From positions 1 to 9,244 of the forward strand of contig JBAWVI010000035.1 of NCBI GenBank assembly GCA_037147375.1: DNA of 9,244 nucleotides, in the 5' to 3' direction. The stretch's first letter is position 1. Each line of letters opens with the position of its first letter. The translations under genes were made by a program, and so were the position numbers. The notes below the pieces were generated by a model. That model was not told where the DNA came from, made no database searches, and was given only the letters and a program-made list of their open reading frames with translations. This document shows positions 825 to 9,244 of this stretch, one piece after another. This DNA comes from an archaeon (GTDB lineage Archaea > Iainarchaeota > Iainarchaeia > Iainarchaeales > CSSED10-239).

Positions 825-1472
825 TTATTTTAACATATATTTTCTTTGAAGAACTTGCTTTAATTTTGGATTCTTAAGCTTTGATATCTTCTTTGCTTGT
901 TGGTTCATTCTTCTCTCATGTGCTGTTTTAATTCTTAAATTTAAACCAATATCTTCACGAAACTTATAGAAGGTTCCTTCTTGTAATAGTTTATTACTTT
1001 TAACTTCTATTCCTCTCACCTTAAATTCATCAGGAATGCATTCCATGGTTTCCTTAACACACCATTCTCTGCATTCTCCAAAATATTCTATATCTATTTT
1101 TTTTCTAAAATTATTATATACTTCTTTATCTTTGAATAGTGGACGGGATTTCGCGTCTACTTCTCCAACATAATTTGAAATAATAAATCTGTTACCAAGA
1201 ACTTTTTTGCCATGCTGCACGAAAGGAGTTATGTGGGTTTCAAGAACTTTTATATTTTCTGGAATAGTAAAATCAGGTTTGATTAATAAGAAACAAACAT
1301 CTTCTCTTTGCTTGTATTTGTTTAGAATATTACCATATACACCTAATGTTTTGGTTAGTATTGATTTTGTTTTGTTGTATGCATCAGGTGTATTTCTTTT
1401 TAGTTCATTATATTCCTTAACAAAATACCAAAGAGGGTGAACTAATACAACTAATTTATTGTACTTTACCAT
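825..1472 (-). CDS. Hypothetical protein, tandem paralog A of the same uncharacterised family
   Basis: 215-aa ORF. Its ATG at 1470-1472 directly abuts the TAA of the gins ORF (1473-1475), so it is likely translationally coupled. See the shared blocks listed for 8..823. I recognise no confident family. Confidence 0.6.
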   Translation of the reverse strand: MVKYNKLVVLVHPLWYFVKEYNELKRNTPDAYNKTKSILTKTLGVYGNILNKYKQREDVCFLLIKPDFTIPENIKVLETHITPFVQHGKKVLGNRFIISNYVGEVDAKSRPLFKDKEVYNNFRKKIDIEYFGECREWCVKETMECIPDEFKVRGIEVKSNKLLQEGTFYKFREDIGLNLRIKTAHERRMNQQAKKISKLKNPKLKQVLQRKYMLK

Positions 1473-3335: not shown

Positions 3336-5630
3336 TTACTGCATATTTATCTCTGAAATTCCATCATTTTCTTTATCTCTTTCTATTATGTACTTGTGGG
3401 AATTCAGGGTTTCAAGTAGCTTTGTATCATGGGTTATTATAAATACCTGGGCTATATATTGAGGAATATCATCTTCTAGTACTTGAGATAGCATTTCAAC
3501 TGCTTTAGTGTCTAAATTATGAGTTGGTTCATCAAGTATTAATAAACCGAGGTTCTTGGTTAAGATTAATGCAATAGCTATTCTTATTGATAAAGCAGCA
3601 CATGCTCTTTCTCCTCCACTTAAGAAGCCTTCAACCTTTATCCATTCTTTTGATTTTGTTTGGACCTCTAAGATGTAATCGTTGTCTGATCTTAAGCGAG
3701 CTGATAAATAGTCCTTGTATGGATAAACCTTTGGCCAGATTATTGAAAGAGCATCATTTATGTTATCAATTAAGACTTTTCTTAATTGGTGCTGGGAGAC
3801 TTCAATTGATTTAATGAAATTTGAGAGATCTTGTTTCTTAATCAAATAATTTTCTTTTGTGCTTTCTAAATCCTTTCTCTTTGATTCTAACTGGTTGTAA
3901 TTTGTTATTTGCTTTTCTAGATTGTCAAGTAAAGAATTGCTTGAACTTATTCTTGCAGTTAATGATTTTATTTCATTTTCTAAAGTCAAATAAGTTGAAT
4001 TGATTTTAATGTATTCTTCTTCGTTATATGATATTTGTTTTAAACTTTCTTCGATAGCTAGTATTTCATTTTTAAGATTTTCTTTAGTATTCATTTTTTC
4101 AAGAATCATTATTGAAAGATCTATTTGCTTTAGATTATCATTAATTTTTTGAAGATATGAATCATCTTCTTTAATTTCAGTTATAGATGTTGTTAATTTT
4201 TGTATTTCTACTTGAATTTCTTCTTTTCTTTTTTGATGTTGGGTAGTTGTTATCTCTAATTGTATGAGTGCAAGATCATCTTCTTTCTGCTTTGATATTT
4301 GTTTGTCTATTTTTTCTTCATCTTGCTTTAGCTTGTCTATTTCTTTTGTTGTGACTTCTAAGTATTGCTTATTTGTTTTTAATTCTTCTTCCTTAGATAG
4401 CTGTTTTTTTTGAATATCTTCTTTTGATAATTGATTATCACAGATTGGGCATTTTGAAAAGCCTTTCTTAAGCTCAGAAATTGATTTTTCAAGTTCTGAG
4501 ATTATTGATAAGCTTGTAATCCTTTTTTGCTTGATAAGAGATAGTTGTTCTTCAATAGATTTCTTTGTAAGTATAGTCTCGTGAAGGGGGGTTGCGGATA
4601 ATTTGGTTTTAGTGTCCAAGATTCTTTGTTGTTTTTCTTTAATTTCTGCTTCCAAACGAGAAAGCTCTCTTTCAAAAGATATTCTTTCATTAACTAGTTT
4701 TGATTTTTTATTTAACTCATCTTTTGTGCTTTCAAGATCTTTGCTTAAGATTAATTTTTCTTTTTCAATGTCTTGCGTATTATACGAAATATATTTTTCA
4801 TCAAGCTTATTTAAGTTTAAATAATTATTAATATCTTCTAATTTTACTTTTTTAAAAATTAATTCTTTTGTGCGCAAATCAAAGTCTTGTTTTTTCTTTT
4901 TTTGATTTGCAAGTTCAAGTGTTAGTTTATCTTCTTTACCTTTCCCAAGAAGAAGTTCTTCTTTTAATTTATTTTGAATATCTTTTGTTTCTTTTTGTTC
5001 TAGTAGCTTTGTTTCTAGATCAAAGGAAGTTAATTGAGAAGATATTTGTGAAATTAGTTGTGTTGTTGTACTCATTTCTACATCAACTAACCTATCAAGA
5101 GTTCTTGCACCATCTTTAATAGTATCTAGTTTAATTATTCCAAATAAATCATCAAATTTTTCTTTTCTTTTGCTAGGTTGGATTTTTAAAAAGTAATCAA
5201 GCTCGTTTTGCTCAGAATAAACAATCTTTGTAAATAATTCATAATCAACTCCGAGCAATTCTTCAATCCTTGTTGTGACATCAGTTTGTTTTGGGCCAGC
5301 AATAAGTTTATTATCTAGATAAAGCTTAGCAGAGGTTATTCCTTTATCATTTATTTCTCTTTCTATCTTGTATATCTTAGAATCAATAGTTAATGTAAGT
5401 ATTATTTTTGCATTTTCCTTCTTTACTGGTTTAAACATTATTACATCTATTGTTTTTAATTTCTTATTTGAAAGAGAAGGAAATGTTCCATAGAGAGCAT
5501 AACAAATAGCATCAGTTATGCTTGACTTACCAGAACCAACCTTACCAATAATTAGGTTAGTGCCGCTTGAGAAATCAAGAGATGAAGAAAGATGTGTTTT
5601 AAAATTCTCAAGATAAATAGAATTAATCAT
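3336..5630 (-). CDS. rad50: Rad50-type SMC-like DNA double-strand-break repair ATPase
   Basis: 764 aa. Walker A is GKVGSGKSS (5520-5546). A long K/E/L-rich coiled-coil region has a central CxxC zinc hook, CPIC, at aa 394-397 (4440-4451). The ABC signature LSGGERACAALSIRIA and Walker B LLILDEPTHNLD are followed by ITHD (H-loop). The central hook favours Rad50/SbcC over condensin-type SMC. Confidence 0.85.
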   Translation of the reverse strand: MINSIYLENFKTHLSSSLDFSSGTNLIIGKVGSGKSSITDAICYALYGTFPSLSNKKLKTIDVIMFKPVKKENAKIILTLTIDSKIYKIEREINDKGITSAKLYLDNKLIAGPKQTDVTTRIEELLGVDYELFTKIVYSEQNELDYFLKIQPSKRKEKFDDLFGIIKLDTIKDGARTLDRLVDVEMSTTTQLISQISSQLTSFDLETKLLEQKETKDIQNKLKEELLLGKGKEDKLTLELANQKKKKQDFDLRTKELIFKKVKLEDINNYLNLNKLDEKYISYNTQDIEKEKLILSKDLESTKDELNKKSKLVNERISFERELSRLEAEIKEKQQRILDTKTKLSATPLHETILTKKSIEEQLSLIKQKRITSLSIISELEKSISELKKGFSKCPICDNQLSKEDIQKKQLSKEEELKTNKQYLEVTTKEIDKLKQDEEKIDKQISKQKEDDLALIQLEITTTQHQKRKEEIQVEIQKLTTSITEIKEDDSYLQKINDNLKQIDLSIMILEKMNTKENLKNEILAIEESLKQISYNEEEYIKINSTYLTLENEIKSLTARISSSNSLLDNLEKQITNYNQLESKRKDLESTKENYLIKKQDLSNFIKSIEVSQHQLRKVLIDNINDALSIIWPKVYPYKDYLSARLRSDNDYILEVQTKSKEWIKVEGFLSGGERACAALSIRIAIALILTKNLGLLILDEPTHNLDTKAVEMLSQVLEDDIPQYIAQVFIITHDTKLLETLNSHKYIIERDKENDGISEINMQ

Positions 5631-5819: not shown

Positions 5820-7451
5820 TTAATTTGATTTTCCTCTCAATTCATACCAAACATTATTTCCAGCACCTTGCCTTATAATCACATTCTGTTTTATTAAATA
5901 ATTTAAATCTCTAGATGCAATCTCTCTACTTATTACAAATCTTTTTTGTAAAATCTCACTTTTTAATTTATTATTTTGCTTTAAGTAATCTAATATCCAA
6001 TTTTGTCTAATTATTGGGTTTGTGTCAACATTTGTGTCAACATTTGTGTCAACATTGGTTAGATTATAAGCTTTATCTTCAATATAATCAAATTTAGGAT
6101 TTATTTTATATGCTTTATTTGTTTTTAAAAATATATTGTGATCTATGAAAAATTGCAATTCTTCAATTAATAACTTTTTATTAACTAAATATTCATATAA
6201 AAATTTATATTGATTATATTTTAAATTAATTTTATTATTTTCTAGTTTATCAATTATCTTGGCGAGTCTTAATGAATTTATTTCTGTATCTAATTTTAAA
6301 ACAACATTATAATCATCAGATTCGGAATAATCCGGGGTGTTTTTCCCAAATCTTACTTGATTATTATACATTTTGTTTGCGCCATCTCCAAAATTTTCAA
6401 TAAAATCACATTTATATAATACATCAGAAAGTAACTTATTTCTTGCTTTGGTTTTATCATATAAATTATCCTTGGTTATTCCTTTTAAAAAACCACCTGG
6501 ACTAGATATCTTGAAAGTATTTTCGGTTTGTTGAACAACTATAGATTCATTTTCAGAATAATCTCTATGAATAATTGCATTATTTATAGCTTCTCTTATA
6601 GATTCTTCATTAAATGCAAATTCTTCTTTTAAAGATAAACCTTTTGGAATGTGGATTAAATAATTTCTAAGATTAATTTTATCCCAAATTTTATTATAAT
6701 AATCAAAATATGCAAAGCGATATATCTCCATAACTTGATTTTTTGTGAAAGTCATATTCTTTCTATATCCAAATCTTATTTCTGAATGTAATAAATGCTT
6801 AAAAATTGTTTTTTCACTACCTAACAAAATAATACAAGCAATTGTAAGCTTATTATTATCTATAAGATTTAAATGCTCTAAAAGTTGCTTATCAGAATAT
6901 GAGTTTATATCTATTCTTATTCTATTTGATTCTTTTAATTTATTTTTTAATTCATGTATAGCAGATATTGAAAGATCTTTAATAGAAGTATTAGGAACAG
7001 GTAAAGACGAAAAATCAGATATATCTTCTTTTATTTTTTTATCTATATCTTCGGAATTTAAACAAATAATTTCATCTCCTAATCTACCTAAAAATTGGCC
7101 CTCAAAATCAAGTACAATTCCTTTTGGCCTAGAGGGTACATTAATTATTAATATTCTTATATTTTTTATAATTAGTTCCTGGACTTGAATTTTTCTTTTT
7201 AATCTATAATACACATCTTTTTCTAATTTTTTAATATCTTTAAATGCATGTGTTCCAATAATTTGTCTGGGTTTTTTATCAGTTACTCCTAAAATTAATT
7301 TACCTCCACCTTCGTTTGCTAATGCAACTATATATCCTAACAAACATTTTTTACCAGTATCAAAATTAAATTGTTCTTTTGCTTCTTTAAATTCTAAATG
7401 TTCTGTTTCTTTATCAACTTTTAGTAAATCCAATAATTCTTTTTTGTTCAT
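5820..7451 (-). CDS. AlbA_2 (Schlafen-type divergent AAA) / HATPase_c_4 (RecG-C-terminal-like) / C-terminal wHTH protein; putative nucleic-acid-binding regulator
   Basis: 543 aa. The N-terminus has ETEHLEFKEAKEQF...VALANEGGGKLILGVTD, the AlbA_2 signature. The centre has REAINNAIIHRDY, the HATPase_c_4 signature. The C-terminus has ISREIASRDLNYLIKQNVIIRQGAGNNVWYEL, which is winged-HTH-like. Signatures were recognised from memory; no HMM search was run. Confidence 0.7.
   Translation of the reverse strand: MNKKELLDLLKVDKETEHLEFKEAKEQFNFDTGKKCLLGYIVALANEGGGKLILGVTDKKPRQIIGTHAFKDIKKLEKDVYYRLKRKIQVQELIIKNIRILIINVPSRPKGIVLDFEGQFLGRLGDEIICLNSEDIDKKIKEDISDFSSLPVPNTSIKDLSISAIHELKNKLKESNRIRIDINSYSDKQLLEHLNLIDNNKLTIACIILLGSEKTIFKHLLHSEIRFGYRKNMTFTKNQVMEIYRFAYFDYYNKIWDKINLRNYLIHIPKGLSLKEEFAFNEESIREAINNAIIHRDYSENESIVVQQTENTFKISSPGGFLKGITKDNLYDKTKARNKLLSDVLYKCDFIENFGDGANKMYNNQVRFGKNTPDYSESDDYNVVLKLDTEINSLRLAKIIDKLENNKINLKYNQYKFLYEYLVNKKLLIEELQFFIDHNIFLKTNKAYKINPKFDYIEDKAYNLTNVDTNVDTNVDTNPIIRQNWILDYLKQNNKLKSEILQKRFVISREIASRDLNYLIKQNVIIRQGAGNNVWYELRGKSN
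6019..6056 (-). repeat. Perfect 12-nt tandem repeat (about 3.2 copies) inside the CDS, encoding (TNVD)x3
   Basis: The plus strand reads tttgtgtcaaca three times (6019-6030, 6031-6042, 6043-6054) followed by tt. It translates on the minus strand as NLTNVDTNVDTNVDTNP, in the linker before the C-terminal wHTH. Confidence 0.95.
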
Positions 7452-7590: not shown

Positions 7591-8640
7591 TTATGATTGC
7601 TTTAACCAGAGGTACTTATAGGTAAGAAAACGCTCAGAGAATATTCTTTTTCCTAGAAAGTAAGTATCTGCGTGCATAATATACCCTAAAAAACTACATA
7701 TTGATGATTCCAATTGTTCTAAAGAAATAGTGTTTCTTTTCAAAGCTTTAATAAGCCTTTTTGTTCTTTTTGTAAACTTAAGTATATTTGCTCTTCTAAG
7801 TCTGGTGTGCGTTGGAAATGTTTTATAACCTACAAAGTCAACTCCATCCTTAATAAGATAAATATTTGTTTTTCGATTAGGAATATCAAGATATAAGTTT
7901 CTACGCAAAAAATATTTGATCTTACGTTTATATACTCGTAATTCTTTTTTTAAATTTGAAAAAATTATAAAATCATCAACATATCTATAATAGTATTTCG
8001 CTTTAAGTTTATGCTTAACAAACTTATCAAGCTCATTAAGATATATGTTTGCAAATAATTGACTTGTAAGATTTCCTATTGGTATTCCTTTGTTATCTCC
8101 AAAATCTGAATGATCAGAATCTATTATTAAATTTATTAGCCATAAGATTTGTTTGTCTTTTATTTTCTTTGCAATAATCCTTTTTAAGACTGTATGATCA
8201 ATTGAAGGAAAATATTTACGCACATCTGCTTTTAATGCGTGTCCCTTAAATCTGAAATGTAATTGTACGTCTTTTCTTATTGCTTTTAGTGCAGTATGTG
8301 TCCCTTTTTTCTTTCTACACGCATATGAATTTGATATAAATGTTTTATCAAATATTGGTTCAATTAGGTTACAGAGTGCATGTTGGACGACCCTATCTCT
8401 AAATGGGGGTGCTTTAATTAATCTTTCCTTAGGTTCATAGATCTTAAACACAAAGTAATTTGAACAAGTGTATTTTTTTGTAATTAATTCATCTTGTATT
8501 TTGAATAATTCAGATTCAAGATTGTATTTAAAATCAGTTATTCCTTTTGTTTTCTTTTTAGATCTTTTTGCTTTTAAAAATGCAGAATGTAGGTTTTCAA
8601 AAGAAATAAACTTATCCCAAAGATTATTATGTGATTTCAT
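7591..8640 (-). CDS. Diversity-generating retroelement (DGR) reverse transcriptase
   Basis: 349 aa. The RT motifs have DGR-clade hallmarks: FRDRVVQHALCN, YACRKKKGTHTA, ADVRKYFPSIDH, GIPIGNLTSQLFANIYLN (IGNLTSQ at 8059-8079; the xGxxxSQ variant of motif 4 is diagnostic of DGR RTs) and YVDD (7972-7983). The protein is collinear with my recollection of Bordetella phage BPP-1 Brt. The N-terminus is NLWDKFISFENLHSAF vs NLIDQITTWENLLDAY in Brt, and the tail contains HADTYFL. There is no group II intron maturase or endonuclease extension. A TR-like element lies directly upstream. Confidence 0.9.
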   Translation of the reverse strand: MKSHNNLWDKFISFENLHSAFLKAKRSKKKTKGITDFKYNLESELFKIQDELITKKYTCSNYFVFKIYEPKERLIKAPPFRDRVVQHALCNLIEPIFDKTFISNSYACRKKKGTHTALKAIRKDVQLHFRFKGHALKADVRKYFPSIDHTVLKRIIAKKIKDKQILWLINLIIDSDHSDFGDNKGIPIGNLTSQLFANIYLNELDKFVKHKLKAKYYYRYVDDFIIFSNLKKELRVYKRKIKYFLRRNLYLDIPNRKTNIYLIKDGVDFVGYKTFPTHTRLRRANILKFTKRTKRLIKALKRNTISLEQLESSICSFLGYIMHADTYFLGKRIFSERFLTYKYLWLKQS

Positions 8641-8880
8641 ATTTTACTACACTGTATTTATAGAATATTAAATAAACAGAATTTTCGCTAGGTTAAAGTT
8701 AACTACTAGTTCTGTTTATCTTGATTTGATTTTGGCACTCTCCAATAAACTAGATTATTGGGCAAAAGATTGCAGCCAAAGAATACACACTGATGTAGTC
8801 AAAACTTATAACCTTCTTTAGATATCAAAAATCGTGGATATCTAAACTCTTTTTAGTTTCCTACATTTATATAGGAGTAT
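8641..8880 (-). ncRNA. Non-coding spacer between TR and RT, probable structured part of the DGR RNA
   Basis: No ORF on the minus strand. Three inverted repeats are present. The first is at 8817-8846 (10-bp stem tttagatatc/gatatctaaa, 10-nt loop). The second is at 8742-8761 (ccaataa/ttattgg, 6-nt loop). The third is an extended imperfect hairpin at 8672-8719, with outer stem ataaacagaa/ttctgtttat and inner stems ctag/ctag and gttaa/ttaac. The position corresponds to the spacer RNA needed for cDNA priming in the BPP-1 DGR. Confidence 0.4.
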
Positions 8881-9012
8881 GACTGCTACGCAGCGGAGCC
8901 CGATGTTGTTGTTCGTGTTGCCTGGTTCGTTATTCAAGTTCAAGGCCATGAGCCCTGCGTTAGTCCCATTGTTCCAGTTCCCGCCAAATAACAAGGCACG
9001 AGCACCAATGCA
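8881..9012 (-). repeat. DGR template repeat (TR); boundaries approximate
   Basis: The minus strand translates as CIGARALLFGGNWNNGTNAGLMALNLNNEPGNTNNNIGLRCVAV. This is the conserved CLec-fold DGR variable-region scaffold (GGxWNNGxNAG...NIG[LF]RC). Eleven of 25 consecutive codons are AAC/AAT. The stretch is about 53% G+C by hand count, against a much more AT-rich background, and has roughly 34 adenines on the minus strand. The frame is open (8845-9108) but has no start codon upstream of the scaffold, which fits a non-coding TR rather than a VR. Confidence 0.8.
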
Positions 9013-9085
9013 CTTTATACAGTATGATTCTCCTCTTTCTTTTTTAGATAACTTAGAAAGAAAGATAAAGATAAGTTGTACTAAA

Positions 9086-9093
9086 TATTTAAA
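9086..9093 (-). promoter_or_regulatory. Candidate archaeal TATA box upstream of TR
   Basis: The minus strand reads TTTAAATA within TTTTTAAATATTT (9083-9095), matching the archaeal TTTAWATA consensus. It lies between the avd stop (9120) and the TR. Such matches are common by chance in sequence this AT-rich. Confidence 0.25.
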
Positions 9094-9119
9094 AATAGGG
9101 TTATATAACTAAAATACAA

Positions 9120-9244
9120 TTAACTTTTGTTATTTATTATTAATTTACCAAGCATTTTGCCAATTTCATTAATTTCACGTTCTGCAAACTCATACTTTTT
9201 AAAATCAAGTATTTTAAGATCCTTTGAAAGGCGAATAAATACTC
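9120..9244 (-). CDS. avd: Avd-like accessory variability determinant (four-helix-bundle, 23S rRNA IVS protein family), C-terminal 40 codons only; truncated by the window edge
   Basis: This ORF is not in the supplied track because it runs off the window. The minus frame ending at TAA (9120-9122) reads VFIRLSKDLKILDFKKYEFAEREINEIGKMLGKLIINNKS*. The tail E-I-G-K-M-L-G-x-L-I matches the C-terminal helix of Avd / four-helix-bundle proteins (BPP-1 Avd has EVGRILGSWI). The position upstream of TR-RT is canonical. Confidence 0.55.
   Translation of the reverse strand, partial: VFIRLSKDLKILDFKKYEFAEREINEIGKMLGKLIINNKS

Follow-up and report, generated by a model that had tools for sequence, protein, structure and literature searches.

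The window analyzed here, a 9,244-nt stretch of contig JBAWVI010000035.1, carries on its minus strand, at positions 9006 to 8881, a 126-nt segment that we read, with a probability of about 0.93, as the template repeat (TR) of a chromosomal diversity-generating retroelement (DGR) in an AT-rich, DPANN-like archaeon, with a lectin-headed target protein encoded beyond the window. The TR lies between avd, the accessory variability determinant gene, and a gene for a reverse transcriptase (RT), and it does not vary among assemblies of its lineage. Its second copy, the variable repeat (VR), stands at the 3' end of the target gene in a near-identical strain and in relatives, and it differs from the TR overwhelmingly at TR adenines. 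Models of the relatives' targets assign their C-terminal domain to the fold of C-type lectins (CLec). A first-pass annotation, made from the letters of the DNA without database searches, had proposed both that the segment is a template rather than a gene and that a target outside the window would end in a CLec-fold domain aligning to the peptide it encodes, and both proposals are borne out by the data below.

Composition and codon design of the template repeat

Read on the minus strand from 9006 to 8881, the TR is GARALLFGGNWNNGTNAGLMALNLNNEPGNTNNNIGLRCVAV, which holds 33 adenines and 11 asparagine codons, 9 of them AAC and 2 AAT, at 8979-8977, 8973-8968, 8961-8959, 8940-8938, 8934-8929, 8919-8917, and 8913-8905. 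The minus-strand translation of 8881-9012 is CIGARALLFGGNWNNGTNAGLMALNLNNEPGNTNNNIGLRCVAV and contains the peptide with 11 Asn codons that the first-pass annotation had quoted. That annotation had also taken 8881-9012 as the limits of the segment; the 3' end is exact, whereas the 5' limit should be drawn 6 nt further in, the homology between TR and VR extending from 9006 to 8881. As had been noticed from the outset, the segment is a sharp GC-rich island in AT-rich DNA (53% GC compared with 27% for the whole window), and its preference for AAC is not that of the window genes, in which just 22% of the Asn codons are AAC.

By enumeration, adenine substitution turns not one of the TR frame's 21 adenine-bearing codons into a stop codon, in agreement with the claim that adenine mutagenesis here never gives a stop. 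The two other frames contain 3 and 2 stop-reachable codons, and zero such codons were seen in only 10 of 2000 shuffles of the TR's own bases. If every TR adenine were substituted, ∼1.7e16 peptides would be possible without any stop codon, with variants generated at the 11 AAY codons and at ACT, ACG, ATG, GAA, ATC, and TTA. The framework codons GGC GGG, TGG, GGG, and GGG CTC CGC TGC are free of adenine, and GCA has one at its silent third position only. The expectation of a framework without adenines at critical positions thus stands for GG, W, G, and GLRC and fails for the isoleucine of IGLRC, whose ATC codon has a first-position adenine and at which the VRs show leucine or glycine.

Across eight independent assemblies of the window's lineage (L001-L008), we found no difference at all in 8881-9006, whereas the flanks do vary, with 8 single-nucleotide polymorphisms in 9055-9227 and one at 8865. 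No second TR-like copy was present in the window, either in a repeat search or in a search with the TR in which N stood for every A and at most 3 mismatches were tolerated. On the opposite strand, the mechanical list of open reading frames (ORFs) includes one of 77 aa antisense to the TR (8879..9112, plus strand), which is called as a gene in L002, L007, and L008, matches no Pfam family, and is probably a gene-calling artefact of the GC-rich TR.

Variable repeats at the ends of target genes

All contigs that carry this RT end within ∼870 nt upstream of it. The VR was reached by using the full avd of L002 as the query and following exact and 86-90% identical avd relatives onto longer contigs, on which a BLAST search with the TR region revealed a diverged second copy. 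A protein search with the TR peptide, tried as another route to the target, yielded just 6 short ORFs, most of which resemble other TRs or fragments rather than this target, and was set aside.

The copy from the window's own lineage lies on L009, a contig of a near-identical strain, the avd of which is as in L002 and differs from the window avd at 8 of 256 nt. The contig begins inside the VR, leaving 124 nt comparable to the window TR, and 9 of the 12 mismatches between the two fall at TR adenines and 3 elsewhere (binomial P = 6.5e-4). The VR peptide, ARALLFGGNCFNGTHAGLMALYLNYEPGTTNLSIGLRCVVVP up to the stop codon, can be aligned with that of the TR and forms the end of the ORF, the VR being followed by a proline codon and the stop. 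In the relatives, each VR could be set against its own TR, and the mismatches again lie at TR adenines in 20 of 20 cases in L013 (P = 2e-11), in 14 of 15 in L022/L016, and in 19 of 27 in L015, so that the count by TR base, which had been suggested as a check on the assignment, came out as expected of a DGR. The L013 VR occupies 9320-9445 and ends 2 codons before the stop of a 443-aa target gene (8120-9451), whose product (P0063) ends in LGLRCVVVP. The VR is hence at the 3' end of a coding target and the TR in the noncoding region between avd and RT, as is usual for DGRs. With 62% GC and 14% A, the L013 VR also contrasts with the remainder of its gene (29-45% GC), the high GC content being confined to the repeat. 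L013 and L015 have identical TRs and VRs that differ from each other at many adenine sites.

Three further VRs and three further TRs came from one scan of metagenomes with a degenerate A-to-N pattern. In the alignment, every TR peptide is rich in Asn and the TR peptides hardly differ from one another, whereas the seven VR peptides vary, almost only at codons with a TR adenine in position 1 or 2, and most Asn positions show 5 to 7 different residues within an invariant framework. The scaffold GGxW...AG...G[FL]RC stands at the extreme C-terminus of the VR proteins and is variable at the TR AAY positions, just where the N residues of the TR peptide had been predicted to be replaced. The idea that AAY codons mark the mutable sites was correct but too narrow, the Glu (GAA), Ile (ATC), Thr (ACT and ACG), Met (ATG), and Leu (TTA) codons also varying in the VRs.

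These comparisons bear on whether the segment in the window might itself be a VR, or the decayed 3' remnant of a lectin gene. It encodes a recognizable CLec C-terminal motif in an open frame of ∼100 codons, and a TTG at 8994, in frame, begins an ORF of 50 aa. This TTG is inside the TR and is the earliest possible start codon of the frame, there being none 5' of the segment, and an in-frame ATG is likewise internal; the statement that the segment has no start codon therefore holds for the sequence upstream of it and not for the segment itself. No ORF precedes it in frame, and the body of a CLec domain is missing. Invariance across eight assemblies and the canonical avd-TR-RT position also speak for a template, and the direction of the relationship is clear from the repeats, the segment having A (and Asn) wherever the gene-end copies have any base. 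A VR or a gene remnant is thus a very improbable explanation, and we retain the assignment of 9006..8881 as the TR.

Beyond the avd relatives, a 66-nt A-to-N pattern had no match in a collection of genome contigs, not even to the TR itself, from which we conclude that the window species is absent from that collection. A regular expression for Asn-rich TR peptides, applied near the reference RTs that are 40-47% identical to that of the window, found one (L033), and either the TR scaffold is not common to all related RTs or the expression was too strict.

Two features lie at or beyond the 3' side of the repeats. TR and VR have in common a GC-rich 3' block, GGGCTCCGCTGCGTAG, and two C-to-T differences between the window TR and the L009 VR are found at the very end of the boundary on this side. 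In addition, a GC hairpin that is conserved between lineages occurs ∼95 nt past the VR (∼215-240 in L009 and ∼9535-9555 in L013), with the arms GCAAGCCC/GGGCTTGC in one and GCAAACCC/GGGTTTGC in the other, which differ by a compensatory change of G-C to A-T. Four ATCTG motifs at ∼9-nt spacing precede it. The hairpin may be a homing signal, a terminator, or something else; that of Bordetella phage BPP-1 adjoins the initiation of mutagenic homing (IMH) element and is nearer the VR than the ∼95 nt seen here.

Predicted architecture of the target protein

In L009 and the relatives alike, the genes follow one another in the order target, 130-aa ORF, avd, TR, RT. The target has more than 1000 homologues, many of which carry the FGE-sulfatase family PF03781 (40-70% identity, precomputed annotation), and some are named "flagellin-like protein" (JGI) or "SUMF1/EgtB/PvdO family." In an AlphaFold2 model of the full L013 target, built with an alignment of 59 homologues (predicted local distance difference test score, pLDDT, of 87), a long N-terminal helix is followed by a beta-rich middle region, which we read as beta-sandwich-like on the basis of the model, and by a large C-terminal domain. 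Foldseek against the PDB matched this model to Thermus aquaticus TaqVP (E 1.4e-8), to Mtd variants (∼1e-4 to 7e-4), and to the archaeal pilins 8fk7, 6nav, and 8q30 with probabilities of at least 0.99. The C-terminal domain was also modeled from P0095, a relative of 298 aa, with a pLDDT of 94, and here the matches were TaqVP (E 3.9e-10, template-modeling (TM) score 0.46-0.48), FGE (1e-4), Mtd (1.2e-3), and TvpA (2y3c, 1.4e-3), with probabilities of at least 0.99; all significant matches of this domain are FGE-type CLec proteins. A profile built from these 59 homologues gave one CLec match in the PDB, a weak one to TaqVP (5vf4, E 0.0028) that includes the VR motif. Together, these data predict unambiguously that the C-terminal domain of the target, as modeled on P0063 and P0095, has the FGE-type C-type lectin fold that the first-pass annotation had anticipated.

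The other end of the protein appears to be pilin-like. The 59-sequence profile matches the flagellar-like type IV pilin of Pyrobaculum (8fk7) with an E value of 4.8e-6 over the N-terminus, and the L013 target gives 1.2e-3 against the NCBIfam UpsA pilin and a sub-threshold 0.077 against Pfam Pilin_N. Archaeal type IV pilins are defined by a class III signal peptide, in which a basic stretch precedes the conserved hydrophobic helix ([KR][GAS]hSPhIAThLL...), and the target may have an N-terminus of this kind. The window contains no genes for pilus assembly. Among the bacterial homologues, P0135, P0141, P0142, P0174, and P0181 have the same lectin domain fused to the N_methyl pilin motif PF07963, and the combination of a pilin-type N-terminus and an FGE-type lectin would accordingly occur in both domains of life.

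The 130-aa ORF lies between the target stop and avd (278-670 in L009, 9605-9997 in L013, and 299-691 in L016). It ends 3 nt before avd and is 85% identical among the relatives, and it matches no Pfam or NCBIfam family, the best E values being near 0.05-0.09. Considered as a possible second Avd, it gave a probability of 1% when aligned by hhalign to an Avd alignment, and no similarity to Avd was detected. The ORF may be a clade-specific DGR accessory gene.

Avd and the reverse transcriptase

The 3' end of avd lies at 9120..9244 on the minus strand and comprises the last 40 codons and the stop, the gene continuing off the window. The translated fragment, VFIRLSKDLKILDFKKYEFAEREINEIGKMLGKLIINNKS up to the stop, matches NCBIfam NF033474 (DivGenRetAVD, E 8.4e-9), and the full-length gene of L002 encodes 112 aa with a match to Pfam bAvd (E 8.5e-22). 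An Avd is thus adjacent to the TR and RT.

The RT gene (7591..8640, minus strand) encodes 349 aa with a match to Pfam RVT_1 (E 9e-23). Its best PDB match, from end to end, is 8ub7_A (328 aa, E 2.8e-58), and group II intron RTs follow at 5e-23. The signature segment GIPIGNLTSQLFANIY contains IGNLTSQ, which fits the [I/V/L]GxxxSQ that DGR RTs have in place of QGxxxSP (PMC7826257) and places the protein in the DGR clade, and a YVDD motif is present within YRYVDDFIIF. In the Bordetella phage RT (bRT), the residues Arg-74 and Ile-181 promote adenine mutagenesis (PMC7826257). At positions 74 and 181, 8ub7_A has Arg (within PRLI) and Ile (within IGSLTSQ), and the window RT retains the equivalents of both; the length and residue numbering of 8ub7_A are consistent with its being bRT. 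The closest RTs in reference genomes are 40-47% identical and come from metagenome-assembled genomes of Nanoarchaeia, Micrarchaeota, Woesearchaeota, and Nanoarchaeota.

The name given to this protein by NCBI is only "reverse transcriptase/maturase family," and the group II RT model TIGR04416 matches it with an E value of 1.6e-46, so one may ask whether it is an RT of another class (group II intron, retron, or defense) to which the Asn-rich segment is unrelated. That match, however, scores 159 bits, far under the cut-off of 300, and 8ub7 leads the other solved relatives by 35 orders of magnitude. The motif is IGNLTSQ and not QGxxxSP, Avd is the neighbor, an Rfam search of the window returned no family and no intron or retron RNA, and TR/VR pairs with a bias to adenine exist. 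We attach next to no weight to another RT class and treat the protein as the RT of the DGR.

Conservation of the avd-RT intergenic region

The whole 479-nt intergenic region in which the TR is located is strikingly conserved in relatives whose avd is 86-90% identical. Upstream of the TR, TTTTTAAATATTTA (9082..9095, minus strand), which is conserved in 5 of 5 aligned related loci, is by its fit to the archaeal TATA consensus a candidate TATA element for a TR-containing RNA. Between this box and the TR, a conserved leader with a CTTTC/GAAAG hairpin (9030..9064, minus strand) is kept in the relatives and is paired in both the minimum free energy and the centroid folds. The 240-nt spacer between TR and RT (8641..8880, minus strand) is very highly conserved among the relatives and likely forms the 3' part of the DGR RNA. 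RNAalifold finds conserved hairpins in it at 8877-8859, 8846-8817, 8762-8742, and 8720-8671 on the minus strand. The five aligned sequences contain two double-sided compensatory pairs; with so few sequences, the support that these pairs lend to a conserved RNA structure is suggestive only. The fold of the whole region has a z score of -2.2.

Assembly breaks at the repeats

One 30-mer, TGCTCGTGCCTTGTTATTTGGCGGGAACTG, forms both ends of L009, which identifies this contig as a unitig bounded by the TR/VR repeat. Other assemblies of the lineage likewise break off within or beside the TR, at 9054 (L001 and L003) and at 9004 (L006). Breaks at the TR/VR repeat are typical of DGR assemblies, and they account for the window genome's own target not being seen. 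Such breaks fit the presence of two near-identical repeat copies and possibly of variable VR alleles. With a vague RT name, a spurious ORF on the TR, and breaks at TR and VR, elements of this kind are easily missed or split from their targets.

Weighing of the assignment

Several observations count against the reading of the segment as the TR of a DGR with a pilin-like, lectin-headed target. The VR and target of the window genome are outside the window and no full copy was recovered, the sole same-lineage VR being the 124-nt contig end of L009; the 120 best homologues do not include the full-length target of the window strain, and an EPG-type VR is absent from all of them. Of the 12 differences in the L009 VR, the 3 that do not involve adenine include, besides the two C-to-T substitutions at the outermost 3' end, a G-to-T change that converts the conserved TGG to TGT. 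In L015, 8 mismatches are at bases other than adenine, a possible sign that this population has a second target allele or a diverged one. There is no clear asymmetry between IMH and IMH* in the relatives, TR and VR of L013 being identical up to the 3' boundary. On the side of the target, L013 scores 16.6 bits against PF03781, below the gathering threshold of 23.3, and 18.8 bits against TIGR02537 (arch_flag_Nterm), for which the cut-off is 20, and the Foldseek TM scores are modest (0.3-0.48), which we ascribe to large inserts in the CLec domain.

The change to TGT in L009 (positions 29-31, aligned to 8974) replaces with Cys a Trp of GGxW that is otherwise invariant. A genuine mutation may lie behind it, or else a mistake in the assembly of a short Logan contig.

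Some of these points would suit a fossil element, in which TR, avd, and RT are intact but mutagenic homing has ended in this lineage and the VR differences are old. Only one VR sequence represents the lineage of the window, and its three changes away from adenine are what ordinary mutation since the last homing event would produce. Against this, the RT and avd ORFs are not only intact but conserved, and the TR has been kept strictly, together with its stop-free, AAC-biased design. The identical TRs of L013 and L015 are paired with different VRs, and the contigs of several assemblies from this lineage break off at or close to the TR or VR, L009 being bounded by a 30-mer common to both repeats. 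A fossil is unlikely in our judgment, and a DGR whose target lies off the window is the explanation that we prefer.

Proposed mechanism

Transcription, cDNA priming, homing, and present activity in this strain are taken by analogy from the Bordetella phage paradigm (PMC6182149, PMC7826257). On that model, the avd-RT intergenic region would be transcribed, probably from the TATA-like box near 9090, and the RT together with Avd would copy the TR part of the RNA into cDNA, misincorporating specifically opposite template adenines. The mutagenized cDNA would then replace the VR, which is expected to form the last 42 codons of the target gene, ∼0.6 kb upstream of avd and off the window. The product would be a surface protein of ∼440 aa, made up of a pilin-like signal and hydrophobic helix, a beta-rich middle, and an FGE-subclass C-type lectin domain, the ligand-binding face of which the VR would encode.

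Comparison with known systems

DGRs are common in DPANN archaea, where CLec-fold targets are thought to mediate attachment (PMC6349945, PMC4372165, PMC5006420), and in the survey of Wu et al. 2018 (PMC5758913) the largest category of DGR targets is that with a CLec1 VR at the C-terminus, within a domain of the FGE-sulfatase type. The locus belongs with the CLec1/FGE DGRs of DPANN archaea, of which it is a clear but ordinary example. With the DGRs of Nanoarchaeota (AvpA) and of Pacearchaeota and Woesearchaeota (PMC4372165, PMC5006420), it has in common a chromosomal location in a small-genome archaeon, the set of Avd, TR, and RT, and a variable protein of CLec fold whose VR is C-terminal and whose presumed role is in cell-cell attachment. 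It differs in its RT, only 40-47% identical to the nearest reference-genome RTs, and in a comparison with DPANN DGRs that did not take in Paul et al. 2017 it is set apart by the type IV pilin-like N-terminus of the target and by the 130-aa ORF.

The target resembles TvpA of Treponema denticola, a member of "category b" of Wu et al. (PMC5758913), in that the VR ends an FGE-subclass CLec domain and AAY codons stand between the residues of a GGxW...G[FL]RC scaffold; Foldseek matched 2y3c at E 1.4e-3 with a probability of 0.99. In contrast to TvpA, the host is archaeal, the N-terminal module is pilin-like, the L013 target is below the PF03781 threshold, and the CLec domain has large inserts, with a TM score of ∼0.3. 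TaqVP (5vf4; PMC6328139) is the best structural match, at TM 0.46-0.48, and the motif RGGxWxNGxxAG...G.R aligns between the two proteins, but their identity is only 15-18%, and TaqVP, a bacterial protein, has no pilin-like N-terminus. The DGR of Bordetella phage BPP-1 likewise comprises Avd, TR, and RT and shows adenine-specific TR/VR differences, and the fold of its Mtd was matched at ∼E 1e-3. Here, however, the element resides in an archaeal cell and not in a phage, the target is no tail fiber, the 130-aa ORF is extra, the hairpin lies ∼95 nt beyond the VR, and in the best pair (L013) there is no IMH/IMH* difference.

Other genes of the window

All genes of the window are on the minus strand. 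Besides avd and RT, they encode a protein combining Schlafen/AlbA_2, HATPase_c_4, and HTH domains, a Rad50/SMC ATPase, the primase small subunit (PriS), and GINS51, the archaeal GINS51, PriS, and Rad50 genes lying downstream of the DGR cassette. This gene content identifies the host as an archaeon, and NCBI, too, labels the proteins of the contig "archaeon" (MAG). Two adjacent ORFs at 8-823 and 825-1472 (minus strand; 271 and 215 aa) are paralogues, with 26% identity (E 5e-20), an N-terminal VVLVHPL and a C-terminal HERR motif common to both, and no Pfam family. In the Rad50/SMC gene (3336-5630, minus strand), the coiled coil at 4536-4815 is unaligned in L002 and L003, which have ∼100 nt where the window has ∼280 nt and in which the gene is called only as a 252-aa piece; this could be a strain-level indel or a misassembly of the repetitive coiled coil. 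A perfect 12-nt tandem repeat of 3.2 copies (6019-6056) within the Schlafen/AlbA_2-HATPase_c_4-HTH gene encodes TNVDTNVDTNVDTN.

Significance

The window provides a clean, fully dissected archaeal DGR cassette in which a prediction of an off-window target, made from sequence only, could be tested and held. A further idea, which we put forward tentatively and consider rather doubtful as it stands, is that the diversified lectin head belongs to a true archaeal type IV pilin, in which case this ultra-small archaeon would carry a hypervariable adhesive pilus or tip for host-finding, with the 130-aa ORF as a new clade-specific accessory factor. If this were true, the bacterial lectin homologues fused to N_methyl would make "DGR-diversified pilins" a convergent theme across domains. 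A literature search, outside which the main DPANN survey (Paul et al. 2017) fell, found no paper linking DGRs to archaeal type IV pilins; we do not claim novelty for the pilin-like N-terminus or the 130-aa ORF, which might simply be less familiar features. What the cassette adds is a lineage with targeted hypermutation of a pilin-like, lectin-headed surface protein. The organism is probably a host-dependent archaeon, and the finding fits the idea that DPANN organisms retune their attachment by means of DGRs.

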